From Halorutilales archaeon Cl-col2-1 (GTDB lineage: Archaea; Halobacteriota; Halobacteria; Halobacteriales; Afararchaeaceae): 64,000 nt of DNA. The position numbers were made by a program. Below are positions 42,001 to 45,000 of the stretch, piece after piece. The stretch is from NCBI GenBank assembly GCA_041891055.1, contig CP169074.1, positions 1,871,031-1,935,030 on the forward strand, read 5' to 3'. Every line of letters begins with the position of its first letter. Within the stretch, counting starts at the first letter, position 1.

Positions 42001-45000
42001 TCCCTAAGTCTTTTCCGGTGGAGATGGGGACAGAGATGAAGATGTGGATGACACTACGACGCGGTCTCCGTCGTCTTCGATGTCTATCCCTGCGTCGGTA
42101 ATCTGTTCACAGACCCACGCGTTCGTCATGAGATGTGACGTCTTCTCGGGAGCCGTGTATCTACCGCCTCCGAGGGCGAGATACGGAATCATCTGGTCGC
42201 CCGAGTAGATGTCGACCGCGGCGTCCGAGTTCGCCGACCTGAGTAAGTCTTCCGCCGCTTCCTCGCCGACTTCCTCGGCGGGCTTACCTATCTCTCCGAG
42301 TGCGCTACCTCCTATTACGGTCTCGTCGAACTCAGCCCAGACTGTAATTCCGGTACCCGTTGAGACCGAATCGTAGCTACGTGTCTCTGTATCTACCTCG
42401 ATGTCCCCGAGTTCTTCCCGTAGTCTCCTCTCGGCGGCTTTCGCCTGTCTCTCGGCAATCTCGTCGTCGAGGTTCGAGACGTGGGAGACAGCCTTGACAC
42501 GTCTCAGACTTCCTTTCTCAACAATCCTGACCCCGTCCGGACTTGACGGTCTCAGTCGGAGAGTTACCTCACCGCCGCCCTCGGGGTAGTACCCCCTCCT
42601 TCCGAGACGGATCTCGGCGTCTATCCCGGTTCTTCGGAGGAGAGGCAGACTGACGTTTTCGAGGTAGTCGTAGGTCGGACTCCATCTGACGTCAGTACCT
42701 CCCCTTACGCTCAGACGTATCTCGGACCCGGCTCTCACCGCGAGGGGTAGAACTGCTTGGATCACGAGGCTTACGCTCCCCGCAGTCCCGACGTCGACCT
42801 CGTACCTCCCGCCCTGAATCCCGTTGGGATCGAAGACGAGTCTCTCCGACCCCTCGGAGACGCCCTCGACTGACGCGTCGGATATCTCAGCGACTGCCTT
42901 GACTGCAGCGATATGCTGGTTACTGAGACCCGAAGGATCACGTCCTCTCCGCATATTCCTTAGCTCTATCTCAGTTCCTGTGACAGCCGCGAGAGCCACA
43001 GCCGTCCTTATTATCTGCCCGCCTCCCTCTCCGTGGGACGCGTCTATGACCTTTCTCATCAGTCTTACTTACCGCAATCATGGACTTAAATCCGGTAGTC
43101 TTTTTAAATGCGGACACAAAGTTGGAATGAGTTCCGATAGGGTAGTGGACTATCCTCCGGGCTTGCGGAGCCCGGGACCGGGGTTCAAATCCCCGTCGGG
43201 ACGTGTATTTCCCACTCTTTATTTTTGTCCAGAGGGATTTGAACAGGGAAGCCACTGACCGAGTTCAAATCCCCGTCGGGACGTGTATTTCCCACTCTTT
43301 ATCCTTATCACGAGAAGCACACGACTTATACGAGTTCAACCGAAAACGACTGTGTAACTCTATGTCGAGAATACAGGCTCCGGTACGTGGTGTCTTCTTA
43401 GTCGCCATCGGAGCCCTTCTACTTCTATCCGGATCTGTCGTAGGTGATGCTGCCGCACAGACCACACAGCCGGATACAGATAACACTGTCACACGTCTCG
43501 ATGTACGAGAGGACGGATCGGCGCGGTGGACTGTTCAGATACGGACACGTCTCGACACCGAGGAGACTTCAGACGAGTACAGAGCCTTCAAGTCGAGATT
43601 CCGTAACGACACGTCTCTCTACCTCGGTACCTTCCGGAGTAGGATGACACGAGTCGTCTCCGACGCGTCGAACACTACCCGCAGGGAGATGCGGGCTACC
43701 AACTTCACCGCTTCAGCGACTGTACAGGAGGTTCCCCGACGCTGGGGAGTAGTCACCTACCGTTTCACGTGGGGTAACTTCGCGTCCACCGAGAACGACC
43801 CCGTCGTAGTCGGAGACGTCTTCGAGGGCGGCTTCTTCCTCGCACAGAACGACAGCCTCCAGATGGAGCCACCCGAAGGATACGAAGCAGTGACTGTCGA
43901 GCCAGAACCCGACAGCCGTGACGGTGACAGACTCGTGTGGAGAGGAAGACACGACTTCTCCGACGGGCGTCCACGCGTCGTCTTCAGGCCCGTTCAGGAA
44001 GAGGATTCGGCTACGGATAACCAAACTTCGACGTCGACCGGCGGTGATGGTGACACGACACAAACGGGGGAAGATACTTCGGACGGTTCGAATCGGGGTC
44101 TTCTATTCGTGGGGGTCGCTCTCGTCCTGATCGTGGCGGGTGCAGCCATCTACTACTACCGGAGAGAACAGGACAGCTCCTCGGAGGACAACGAGTCTGA
44201 CACCAAAATCCAAGCCGACACTGAGACCCAGACCCAGACCTCGACGGCGGCGGAGACGGGATCGGGGACAGTCATGACAGACGAGGAACGCGTAGAGGCA
44301 GTCCTCGAAGCTAACGGCGGACGTATGCGTCAGGCGGAGATAGCCGACGAGTTCGACTGGTCTGCCTCGAAGACGTCACGTGTCATAGGAAAGATGGTAG
44401 AAGACGACTCGGTGGAGAAGCTACGTCTCGGACGTGAGAATCTCATCGATCTTTCGGGTTTCGACACCGATGTCGATGAATCTGACTCAGACTCCGAACT
44501 AGGCTCCGAAGAGTAGTTTTCCTTCATGTCTCAAGTATCTCAACAAGATTGTCCTCGGGATCGCGGACGAAGAGTATACGTGTGCCGCTCTCTGTCGTCT
44601 GAGGCTCGCTGAGGGTCTCGACGTCGTCGGGTAGCCCCTTGTAGAAGGCGTCGATGTCGTCGACTTCGAGTCCGAGGTGTTTCGCGCCGCGTCTGTTGAT
44701 ACTCTCTGACCCTCCCTCCTCTATCTCTATCGGGTCGTACTCGACGAGTTCGATCCGTGCGTTCCCTGCGTCGAGATGGGCGAACCTCCCCGTCGCGTTG
44801 TCGACGTCGACGCCCTCGGAGAACTCCTTTCCCGAGACCGTGAACCGTGCGACGACATCGAGACCCAGTACGTCTTCGTAGAACTCGACCGCGCGTTCGA
44901 GGTTCTCGACAGTCACGCCGAAGTGGTGGGCTGTCAGATCGGGCTTCGACTCGGATTCGGTCATGTCTACGGGTTCGGCACGAACCCGCTTCGTTCTTGC

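Follow-up and report, generated by a model that had tools for sequence, protein, structure and literature searches.

What are the short hairpins that stand behind some tRNA genes of Halorutilales archaeon Cl-col2-1, each ending in a copy of its own tRNA's 3' end? The question is raised by tRNA-Arg(GCG), which lies in the window analysed here, a stretch of 64,000 nt whose position 1 is position 1,871,031 of contig CP169074.1. A preliminary description had reported the element at this locus together with others like it; we confirm that the tRNA-linked hairpins are real, while the interpretation then given to them is, taken as a whole, partly supported. In what follows, G000 is this genome, G001 a congener and G022 a genome of another family.

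Elements behind three tRNA genes of the window

All features of the window described here are on the + strand. tRNA-Arg(GCG) (43131..43203) was called by ARAGORN and scores 50.3 bits with the Rfam tRNA model; from G53 on (43183-43203) it forms the first copy of a repeat. Its trailer (43204..43226) terminates in a T run (43222-43226) and is followed by a left arm, GTCCAGAGGGATTTGAAC (43227..43244), which is an imperfect inverted version of the T loop, T stem and acceptor 3' strand, then by an apex, AGGGAAGCCACTGACCGA (43245..43262), of the form AGGGAA-N6-TGACCGA (type A, short form), and finally by the distal repeat (43263..43302). The direct copy had been reported to run to 43283, and 43263-43283 does equal 43183-43203 exactly, 21 nt from G53 to the discriminator. 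The full repeat is longer, since the first 19 nt of the trailer (43204-43222) recur behind the distal copy as well, so that the repeat measures 40 nt (43183-43222 = 43263-43302, period 80). For the 56-nt hairpin the calculated energies are -13.6 (sense) and -12.1 (antisense) kcal/mol with DNA parameters, and -25.8 and -23.8 kcal/mol with RNA parameters.

tRNA-Leu(TAG) (45053..45137; ARAGORN and Rfam) is followed by two elements. The first (45138..45236) consists of a trailer hairpin made of a T run and an A run, a left arm (45167-45185), a long apex AAAGAA...TGACTGA (45186-45214) and a 22-nt copy (45215-45236), and is nearly identical to the element behind tRNA-Leu(GAG) elsewhere in G000. The second (45237..45291) is of a short, acceptor-only type: its left arm lies at 45255-45262, the apex, AGGGAA-N6-TGACCGT, occupies 45263-45281, and 45282-45291 repeats the tRNA's last 10 nt with one mismatch; the trailer motif tTCGAACGAAGTGAgg recurs behind it. 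The trailer of Leu(TAG) differs between G001 and G000 at 14 of 32 positions, and in G000 trailer and element together match the Leu(GAG) version, a match that indicates a probable transfer between two tRNAs with a common 3' end.

tRNA-Gln(CTG) (51234..51309; ARAGORN and Rfam), with the first repeat copy at 51286-51307, carries an inserted unit at 51308..51434, whose short left arm lies at about 51344-51355 and whose 22-nt copy spans 51413-51434. Its limits follow from comparison with G001 and with metagenome DNA contigs of four runs, where the joint runs from 51307 to 51448. It is missing in the congener, as it is in contigs of the metagenome runs X2 and X3, and in all of these tRNA-Gln(CTG) is joined directly to the sequence that in G000 comes after the distal copy. 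The trailer that the unit carries is new and unrelated to the local one.

Scanning 43227-43302, 45138-45291 and 51308-51434 against Rfam gave nothing at E <= 1, the tRNA model (RF00005) included, in agreement with the earlier statement that the family is absent from Rfam.

tRNA census and controls

Without intron search, ARAGORN finds 43 tRNA genes in G000; allowing for introns brings in Met and Trp along with some false calls. An exact copy of the tRNA's own 3' end lies downstream on the same strand at 13 of the 43, 40-119 nt away, and is 22 nt long at five loci, 21 nt at another five, and 16, 15 and 13 nt at the remaining ones. Each copy begins at the T loop; in front of it stand a degenerate inverted copy and an apex. 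These are the identical 13 loci of the preliminary description, whose figures for copy length (13-22 nt), distance (40-120 nt) and strand also agree with ours; its total of 46 tRNAs, on the other hand, is replaced by 43. An upstream control, which had been missing, has now been run on the same 43 tRNAs: none has an upstream copy, the longest direct match to a 3' end being only 10 nt. The corresponding control with the 5' ends, up- and downstream and in either direction, gave a longest match of 11 nt.

The apex motif AGGGAA-N4-8-TGACC occurs 21 times in G000, and the reversed pattern has 0 matches over the same genome. Seventeen of the occurrences adjoin a tRNA (12 in an array behind tRNA-Val(GAC) and 5 at other tRNAs) and four lie elsewhere, so the earlier wording that it is found only after tRNAs has to be softened to almost only. 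The eight loci to which the motif had been assigned are recovered as seven tRNA loci with AGGGAA plus Lys(CTT), where it reads GGGAA.

Could such a pattern be due to chance, to an artefact of the assembly or to mere replication slippage that duplicated sequence locally, without any element in common? Three of the 13 local hairpins fold no better than shuffles, and the Val array could expand by slippage once two units were present. This reading is nonetheless already contradicted by the empty upstream and reversed controls, and the elements are orthologous in a second species (G001) and have apex families that are conserved across families of the class; we regard it as scarcely credible.

Distribution across Halobacteria

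The strict apex motif is present in 3 of 41 relatives and is thus nearly genus-specific, other genera having other apex types; for the wider survey it was therefore replaced by an apex-free, generic pattern, in which an inverted T loop is followed, after a spacer, by a direct one. This pattern has matches in 137 of 151 Halobacteria genomes and, when reversed, in 0 of 151, and the matches contain the conserved boxes TTYGAAY ... GTTCRAATC. Among the foreign loci examined, 22 of 28 have a tRNA just upstream and a copy of 13-24 nt, and in G022 about 25 of 52 tRNAs have an element; the family is hence real, tRNA-linked and class-wide in Halobacteria, as had been proposed. At the foreign loci examined and in G022, the orientation of the element relative to the tRNA is constant.

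The other six foreign matches (L057, L059, L062, L073, L079, L082) have no tRNA within 1.5 kb. L057, L059 and L082 look like chance and were rejected as elements, and L073 and L079 sit inside arrays of repeat-bounded segments. The sequence around the match at L062 is without an evident element. In other classes of the phylum the generic pattern is near background, and matches in another family of the phylum (f23) proved to be false, lying within an intron-bearing tRNA-Glu.

In different genomes the same type-B apex occurs together with arms that belong to Gly(TCC), Ala(GGC), Glu(CTC) and Arg(CCG). Decayed copies of the element exist as well. In the viral collection the type-A apex pattern has one match, which is again a tRNA with an element, and the type-B pattern none.

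Filled and empty sites, repeat boundaries and arrays

Between the two congeners, sites are found both filled and empty: Gln(CTG) is filled in G000 and empty in G001, while the reverse holds for Gln(TTG) and Pro(TGG). At each of these three sites the trailer behind the distal copy is the trailer of the empty site. Both Gln units import trailer DNA that is unrelated to the local trailer, which rules out duplication in situ as the sole origin at these two loci. Repeat-mediated deletion leaves the same empty site, and each of the presence/absence differences may therefore be a gain or a loss.

The left boundary of the repeat is fixed at the T loop, and where the T loops of copy and tRNA differ, identity begins at A58 (Val(GAC) in G000; L058; Gly(GCC), Ser(TGA), Thr(CGT) and Leu(TAA) in G022). 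The right boundary is variable, from inside the acceptor up to about 106 nt; repeat lengths range from 13 to about 106 nt and unit sizes from 61 to 140 nt. The link to T-loop-directed recombination that had been considered earlier is strengthened both by the empty versus filled congener sites and by repeat identity that begins inside the T loop.

Several units can stand behind one tRNA. tRNA-Val(GAC) has 12.3 tandem 81-nt units (99% match) in G000 and one unit in G001; in G002 three units with two different apex types follow one tRNA-Ser; and in G001 the units at Leu(TAA) are nested. Left-part-only remnants stand at Lys(CTT) and Phe(GAA) of the congener. In G159 and G113, hairpin units share arrays with larger repeat-bounded segments that hold cargo but no integrase.

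The reading that we favour, for which we judge the case to be evenly balanced, is that these are small cargo-less DNA elements which enter Halobacteria tRNA genes through site-specific recombination with its junction in the T loop, the sense-strand hairpin being the recombination site. An integrated unit would begin with tRNA positions 1-53, followed by the element's own copy of the tRNA from T loop to 3' end with some trailer, then by left arm and apex, and last by the original 3' end, now displaced, together with the ancestral trailer. Because the element would supply its own copy of this part, the tRNA would stay intact and the target would be rebuilt, and a rebuilt target would make repeated insertion and tandem arrays possible. 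Left arm, apex and right arm together would fold into an imperfect sense-strand hairpin whose stem would mimic the duplex of the T-loop-to-acceptor region of the tRNA gene. By analogy with the attC sites of integrons and the attP hairpin of CTX phage, the folded single strand may be what is recombined, by a putative Halobacteria-wide recombinase that acts in trans and would recognise the T-loop box and, in the apex, the internal loop that is conserved. The sequences show the anatomy, the association with tRNAs, the existence of filled and empty sites, a T-loop junction, the arrays, apex families common to several tRNAs and the better folding of the sense strand; recombination in preference to other insertion routes, the single-stranded intermediate and the enzyme are what we infer.

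The preliminary description suggested that the elements could be scars of T-loop-targeting integrases; spelled out, they would be inert, distal attachment-site remnants that stayed behind after internal deletion of integrase-bearing proviruses or plasmids integrated at the T loop. tRNA 3' repeats of variable trailer extent are typical of classical integrated elements, and G000 has two, at tRNA-Ala(CGC) (18 kb) and tRNA-Glu(CTC) (57 kb), both with integrase matches and with repeats of 73 and 41 nt; the accessible portions of PMC3119063 and PMC7002104 describe integrated elements leaving repeats of the tRNA 3' part in published haloarchaeal genomes. The left-part-only remnants at Lys(CTT) and Phe(GAA) in G001, as well as the decayed copies, would also agree with scars. 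However, no full-length parent with a hairpin at its distal repeat was seen among the classical elements of G000 (0 of 2), and independent deletions would not leave the same 40-50 nt of left arm and apex behind dozens of tRNAs and in 137 of 151 genomes. Apex families that are common to different tRNAs, with arms matching each, the near-identical tandem units at Val(GAC) and the strand-biased folding described below also fit scars poorly, and we consider this origin quite improbable.

Folding of the hairpin and a possible role in RNA

Compared with shuffles, z <= -3 is reached at 7 of 13 loci under DNA parameters and at 8 of 13 under RNA parameters. The earlier count had been eight strong folds (z <= -3.3) and five no better than shuffles; here those that do no better are three, namely Met, Val and Gln(CTG). 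In 35 of 46 rows the fold of the sense strand is better than that of the antisense strand, and 34 hairpins contain 30 G:T pairs versus 5 A:C mismatches. Reading the listed sequences by eye, we find that apical stems vary in sequence yet stay stems, that some internal loops, CAGGGA / GACCGTG for example, are kept from family to family, and that TNCG-like loops and tandem G-A beside helices occur. Readings of the apex as a K-turn and as a bulge-helix-bulge were tried by hand and rejected for misfit in register.

Past the T loop, the inverted arm is only loosely specific for its tRNA. In the ranking of 11 of the 13 loci (two were dropped, no inverted T loop being located), the own tRNA is best or tied at 4 of 11 and among the top 3 of 43 at 7 of 11. 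The 5 nt beside the inverted T loop pair with the own T stem at 3.24 of 5 positions, compared with 2.71 +/- 0.12 for other tRNAs, and 0 of 2000 shuffles reach the observed 3.24; this test covers 42 of 62 elements, 17 having fallen out by location criteria and 3 more having also been lost. Hairpins of G000 and G001 differ at 9 of 275 positions and spacers at 25 of 265, a single locus accounting for 14 of these 25, so that the hairpin is only modestly more conserved than the spacers; the right arm differs at 2 of 159. The two copies of the repeat evolve in concert, and the trailers do too.

Several of these properties would also suit an RNA element that acts in cis within the 3' trailer of the pre-tRNA, with the DNA repeats reflecting merely its origin or homogenisation by duplication and gene conversion. 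It might act as a back-up terminator (the hairpin and then the T run of the old trailer), as a processing or stability signal, or as a mimic of the acceptor/T-arm minihelix. The elements are always downstream, on the same strand and near the tRNA; better sense folding, the G:T pairs, stems kept despite sequence change, conserved internal loops and the right arm with so few differences all agree with an RNA role, TTTT often stands directly behind the distal copy, and tolerance of the G:U type, TNCG-like loops and tandem G-A beside helices would fit RNA equally. T runs are archaeal terminators, however, and they intervene between tRNA and hairpin at Leu(GAG), Leu(TAG), Met, Phe, Arg(GCG) and many foreign loci. 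The acceptor part of the stem is frequently absent or mismatched, so the minihelix is not conserved. Moreover, the repeats span trailer DNA and the units bring foreign trailers, elements are gained or lost between congeners and decay, the 12.3 copies at Val(GAC) have no obvious RNA rationale, and there is no Rfam match. Weighing these points, we think an RNA element unlikely, but still a contender to be taken seriously.

Comparison with known systems and search for an enzyme

The T-loop sublocation of elements that integrate into tRNA genes was reportedly treated by Williams in 2002. As in classical tyrosine-integrase elements of tRNA genes, the hairpin units have a tRNA 3' repeat whose start within the tRNA is fixed while its end within the trailer varies, an intact proximal tRNA and a displaced distal 3' end. 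They differ from them in being gene-free, only 60-140 nt long and without an integrase inside the repeat-bounded segment, in the inverted target copy and conserved apex beside the distal repeat, and in their occurrence at a quarter to half of tRNAs and in tandem arrays.

The core boxes of integron attC sites have the consensus RYYYAAC ... GTTRRRY. The hairpins resemble attC as imperfect palindromes of similar size with structure kept more than sequence and an ...AAC / GTT... core, and resemble integron arrays in that one strand folds better, units are arranged head to tail at one point and the target would be regenerated. Their boxes, TTYGAAY ... GTTCRAATC, nevertheless share only AAC/GTT with attC and lie inside the stem instead of at its foot, and it is the sense strand that folds better, which we count as a further difference. 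Insertion is at T loops of dispersed tRNA genes and not at an attI by an integrase gene, and the units have no ORF. With IMEX of the CTX-phage type they share a folded single strand, here predicted, that pairs two inverted imperfect copies of the target and so mimics it, as well as a single junction at which inverted arm, loop and target-derived arm meet, tandem arrays and the lack of their own integrase. Unlike IMEX, they target tRNA genes and not dif (all insertions are in or behind tRNA genes), have an archaeal host and measure some 100 nt in place of a phage genome. Like CIMEs and MITEs, they are non-autonomous, short and presumably mobilised in trans; MITEs, however, have terminal inverted repeats of their own and a fixed target duplication, in contrast to target-derived arms and a duplication of 13 to about 106 nt, and CIMEs are kb-sized and derived from conjugative elements.

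The tRNA-like t-elements of Haloferax volcanii, reportedly the subject of Holzle et al. 2012, had been named as a possible overlap. They share with the hairpins a tRNA-related sequence outside a tRNA gene and a haloarchaeal host. As far as the accessible portion of PMC4326828 describes them, t-elements are a tRNA-like structure upstream of 5S rRNA; by that description the two differ, the units studied here being plain hairpins without a score in the Rfam tRNA model.

Of 11 Phage_integrase matches in G000, none is tied to the elements, and no autonomous parent with such a hairpin was found with the two apex patterns over the viral collection or in the two classical elements of G000. Both results count against the recombination reading, as do the three local hairpins that fold like shuffles and the only modest conservation of the hairpin. 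A relation to REP/RAYT systems is not apparent: the only Y1_Tnp gene of G000 (C1:979038-979397) has no T-loop box within 978300-981800, and together with a large divergent open stretch upstream it suggests an IS200/IS605 layout. The reverse transcriptase model RVT_1 has 0 matches in G000 (99.5% complete) and did match control genomes, and retro-copying of circularised trailer RNA was dropped for this reason. Y2_Tnp, the rolling-circle transposase, also has 0 matches in G000, with control genomes equally blank.

A more far-reaching proposal, which we offer as speculative and rather doubtful, is that Halobacteria possess an unrecognised system of the integron or IMEX kind, in which the T loop of every tRNA would be a potential insertion site, units whose sense-strand hairpins mimic the duplex of the tRNA gene would be the cassettes, a class-wide recombinase would act in trans, and exchange would involve a single strand. 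The larger gene segments behind tRNAs in G159 and G113, repeat-bounded and without an integrase, may be loaded by this system as well.

Implications

Full-text searches of the literature, with subscription papers and supplements outside their scope, returned no description of such hairpins, and they are undescribed in the accessible portions of PMC3119063, PMC8371274, PMC7002104, PMC7714728 and PMC4326828. If active, the units would be the smallest known tRNA-targeted insertion units and very common ones, occupying between a quarter and a half of the tRNA genes of some haloarchaea, with the unusual design of a hairpin in which both arms are copied from the target. They could lead to a recombinase not known so far, or to a known one in a new role, could explain why haloarchaeal tRNA 3' flanks are hot spots that collect foreign genes, and could offer a compact, tRNA-addressed insertion site for haloarchaeal genetic tools. 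If the hairpin acts as RNA instead, Rfam would lack a structured element that pre-tRNA trailers have throughout the class. In both cases, present genome annotation ignores these elements, and they break metagenome assemblies at tRNA loci: in the window, metagenome DNA contigs end at 43165, 45080 and 51254.

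Organization of the element at tRNA-Arg(GCG)

tRNA-Arg(GCG) occupies 43131-43203 of the window and is separated from the element by a 23-nt trailer with a T run at its end. The element consists of an 18-nt left arm (43227-43244), which repeats the T loop, T stem and acceptor 3' strand imperfectly and in inverted orientation; an 18-nt apex, AGGGAAGCCACTGACCGA (43245-43262); and a 21-nt right arm (43263-43283) that matches the tRNA exactly from G53 through the discriminator. The preliminary description of tRNA-linked hairpin elements missed that this identity extends another 19 nt into the trailer; the repeat is therefore 40 nt in total (43183-43222 equals 43263-43302). 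The sense strand of the 56-nt hairpin is predicted to fold at -13.6 kcal/mol with DNA and -25.8 kcal/mol with RNA parameters, compared to -12.1 and -23.8 kcal/mol for the antisense strand; the z scores for the fold of the locus are -3.5 (DNA) and -3.0 (RNA), and a search of Rfam with the hairpin gave no match at E <= 1.

The window contains two further loci, tRNA-Leu(TAG) (45053-45137), followed by two elements in succession, and tRNA-Gln(CTG) (51234-51309), followed by one. The second element after tRNA-Leu(TAG), at 45237-45291, is of a shorter type with the same apex (AGGGAA...TGACCGT), whose repeat begins at the acceptor strand and not at the T loop (the last 10 nt of the tRNA, with one mismatch); this acceptor-start type is also present at Leu(TAA) in the congener. 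Metagenome contigs from runs X2 and X3 skip 145 nt of the window at 45511-45657.

Census and controls

ARAGORN, run without intron search, finds 43 tRNAs in the genome (2.06 Mb, 4 contigs), and 13 of them have 13-22 nt of their 3' end repeated exactly on the same strand, 40-119 nt downstream. For the same 43 tRNAs, direct matches upstream reach at most 10 nt, and 5'-end controls give none above 11 nt. The motif AGGGAA-N4-8-TGACC occurs 21 times, 17 of them adjoining tRNAs, and its reversed form is absent from the genome. The tRNA-linked 3'-end copies are borne out as first described. The copies always start at G52-T54 and at most loci end at the discriminator; as well as at Arg(GCG), they run on into the trailer at Thr(GGT) (by 9 nt) and at Val(GAC), where the whole unit is repeated. 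The Val(GAC) array lies outside the window (G000:C1:1463952-1464944; L009 1439-2431) and comprises 12.3 head-to-tail units of 81 nt with 99% match, each made up of trailer, left arm, apex and tRNA 3' copy; the congener has one unit only. Decayed copies lie 3' of tRNA-Trp and the second tRNA-Gln(TTG), and an element remnant 3' of Arg(TCG). Measured against dinucleotide shuffles, 7 of the 13 loci fold with z <= -3 using DNA parameters and 8 using RNA parameters, while the Met, Val and Gln(CTG) hairpins fold no better than the shuffles.

Junction and arms

At loci where the T loop of the distal copy differs from that of the tRNA, identity starts at A58. At Val(GAC), the tRNA reads TTCG|AAT and the copies TTCA|AAT; identity likewise starts at A58 at locus L058 and, in a genome of another family (G022), at Gly(GCC), Ser(TGA), Thr(CGT) and Leu(TAA). 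Judging from these sequence identities, the junction lies within the T loop.

In contrast to the exact right arm, the left arms are degenerate, and past the conserved T loop they match their own tRNA loosely: the own tRNA ranks top or tied at 4, and among the top three of 43 at 7, of the 11 loci ranked (two of the 13 were omitted, no inverted T loop being located). The five bases beside the inverted T loop fit the T stem of their own tRNA better (3.24 of 5 positions paired) than those of other tRNAs (2.71 +/- 0.12), and none of 2000 shuffles reached 3.24; this test used 42 of 62 non-redundant elements, 17 being excluded on location criteria and 3 more dropping out. The left arms are therefore of local origin, but degenerate.

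Comparison with the congener

In the congener (G001), 12 of the 37 tRNAs examined carry the element, and the 8 loci common to both genomes are orthologous. Gln(CTG) is filled in the genome under study and empty in the congener, while Gln(TTG) and Pro(TGG) show the reverse. At each of these loci the empty site is exact, and the trailer that follows the distal copy is that of the empty site. The units at Gln(CTG) and Gln(TTG) contain trailer DNA unrelated to the local trailer, which rules out simple local duplication as the origin of both. X2 and X3 metagenome contigs show the empty, congener-like Gln(CTG) site with the joint 51307 to 51448, and are not independent evidence. In the congener the repeat takes in ~34 nt of downstream DNA at Pro(TGG) and ~106 nt at Leu(TAA), the latter stretch containing an older short element. 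Of the elements at Lys(CTT) and Phe(GAA), the congener keeps the left part alone.

Between the two genomes, 25 of 265 spacer positions differ, against 9 of 275 in left arm and apex and 2 of 159 in the right arms. At Arg(GCG), species-specific substitutions in the trailer are common to both repeat copies, so the copies evolve in concert. In the genome under study, Leu(TAG) and Leu(GAG), 1.78 Mb apart, have the same 3' end, and their trailers and elements match. The Leu(TAG) trailer of the congener departs from that of the genome under study at 14 of 32 positions, which suggests transfer or conversion between the two loci.

Distribution

The strict apex pattern is nearly limited to the genus (3 of 41 relatives). 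A pattern without the apex (an inverted T loop separated by 14-34 nt from a direct one) has matches in 137 of the 151 Halobacteria genomes with a completeness of 90% or more and its reversed form in none of them, in line with the spread through Halobacteria originally proposed. Of 28 foreign loci, 22 have a same-strand tRNA 40-230 nt upstream whose own 3' end is copied over 13-24 nt; at the remaining six, neither ARAGORN nor Rfam finds a tRNA within 1.5 kb. Across a sample of the phylum, the pattern matches 22 of the 25 Halobacteria, several times in each; among 126 genomes of other classes, 30 have a match, nearly always one, and the reversed control gives 8. Five of these 30 are false, lying inside intron-bearing tRNA-Glu. 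A full census of G022 found a downstream copy of at least 13 nt at 28 of 52 tRNAs; three of these copies are explained by tandem tRNA gene pairs, as are all 3 upstream matches, which leaves about 25 of 52 tRNAs with the element.

Apex families and strand bias

Compared by eye, the apexes fall into a type A (CAGGGA, short stem-loop, GACCGTG), of which the apex of the genome under study is a truncated form, a type B (a stem such as GAAGAC/GTCTTC or CGAGAC/GTCTCG around GA-GCGNAGC-GA), and further types. The apical stems vary in sequence and retain the stem, and one type-B apex is joined to the arms of Gly(TCC), Ala(GGC), Glu(CTC) and Arg(CCG). We also observed a recurrent trailer module, a T run, a small hairpin with loop GAAC...GTGA (e.g. 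stem-GAACAAnnCGTGA-stem) and AAAT, within 30-40 nt downstream of many tRNA genes and of the distal copies (L060-L084; in G022, L099-L138); its loop motif recurs in type-B apexes.

The elements keep one orientation with respect to the tRNA. In 35 of the 46 rows compared, predicted folding is stronger for the sense strand than for the antisense, in 9 it is weaker and in 2 equal (the rows include 8 orthologous pairs, and 4 were reduced by trimming to a local hairpin of 10-20 nt), and 34 non-redundant hairpins contain 30 G:T pairs as compared to 5 A:C single mismatches. Together, the predicted folding advantage and the excess of G:T point to a single-stranded form of the sense strand, as RNA or DNA. 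The hairpin may have an RNA role; against it as the main explanation stand the T runs between tRNA and hairpin, the poorly conserved acceptor pairing, and the turnover of elements between congeners. Holzle et al. (2012) reportedly predicted 47 elements, which may overlap with those described here.

Larger integrated elements and mixed arrays

The genome also holds two classical integrated elements with integrase-family matches, one of 18 kb at tRNA-Ala(CGC) (G000:C1:1671458-1689700; 73-nt repeat from about position 60), whose integrase gene adjoins the distal copy, and one of 57 kb at tRNA-Glu(CTC) (G000:C1:1277900-1335129; 41-nt repeat); neither has the hairpin. In genome G159 (L085 17800-19925), two ~1-kb units with a 13-nt repeat at their boundaries stand between tRNA-Arg(TCG) and a hairpin unit; one of the two contains a Fic/DOC-family ORF. 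In G113, a hairpin unit precedes a 4.2-kb repeat-bounded segment with MCRA, HTH_10 and ParA-like ORFs (L088 40-4360). The repeat-bounded segments of both genomes contain cargo but no integrase. In G002, three units with two apex types lie 3' of one tRNA-Ser. The viral collection gave one match, a tRNA-Glu(TTC) with a type-A element on an IMG/VR contig (L139 13744-14010). A further hairpin comes after it, with arms that match one another and not the tRNA; both adjoin a tail-gene region, with a Baseplate_J-like ORF at 8125-9372 of the contig part analysed.

Mechanism

We suggest that a preformed unit inserts at the T loop of a tRNA gene and itself carries a copy of the part of the tRNA that begins at the T loop, so that the tRNA would remain intact; the old 3' end would be displaced downstream and the target rebuilt. 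Insertion of this kind would explain an exact right arm, a repeat of variable reach and foreign trailers, as well as the accretion of unlike units and the homogeneous arrays, and the data are consistent with it. Left arm, apex and target-derived arm would then stand together at the distal junction, the layout that a folded single-strand attachment site of the CTX-phage kind leaves behind, and the folding strand bias agrees with such a site. The layout also resembles an integron attC site; a bolder reading would be an integron-like system. The reading we favour is a family of miniature hairpin elements, spread across the class, with the tRNA T loop as their insertion site; it would be a new form of tRNA-directed site-specific integration. 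The observation behind the preliminary description is confirmed and extended.

In the parts available, the only tRNA-gene elements described in haloarchaeal genome papers (PMC3119063, PMC7002104) and in a review on tyrosine recombinases of archaea (PMC8371274) are classical integrated ones, and the word "hairpin" is absent from the available part of the review. Full-text searches, covering main texts, likewise returned only classical tRNA-gene integrated elements and no such hairpins.

No reverse transcriptase was found in the genome, and a search for the rolling-circle transposase Y2_Tnp gave 0 matches, with the control genomes blank as well. The sole Y1 transposase gene was considered as a partner of the elements and is unrelated by context. 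Just downstream of this gene (G000:C1:979400-979600) lie five or six small perfect hairpins with AGATC/GATCT-type stems, and similar hairpins occur near the distal repeat of the tRNA-Glu(CTC) element.
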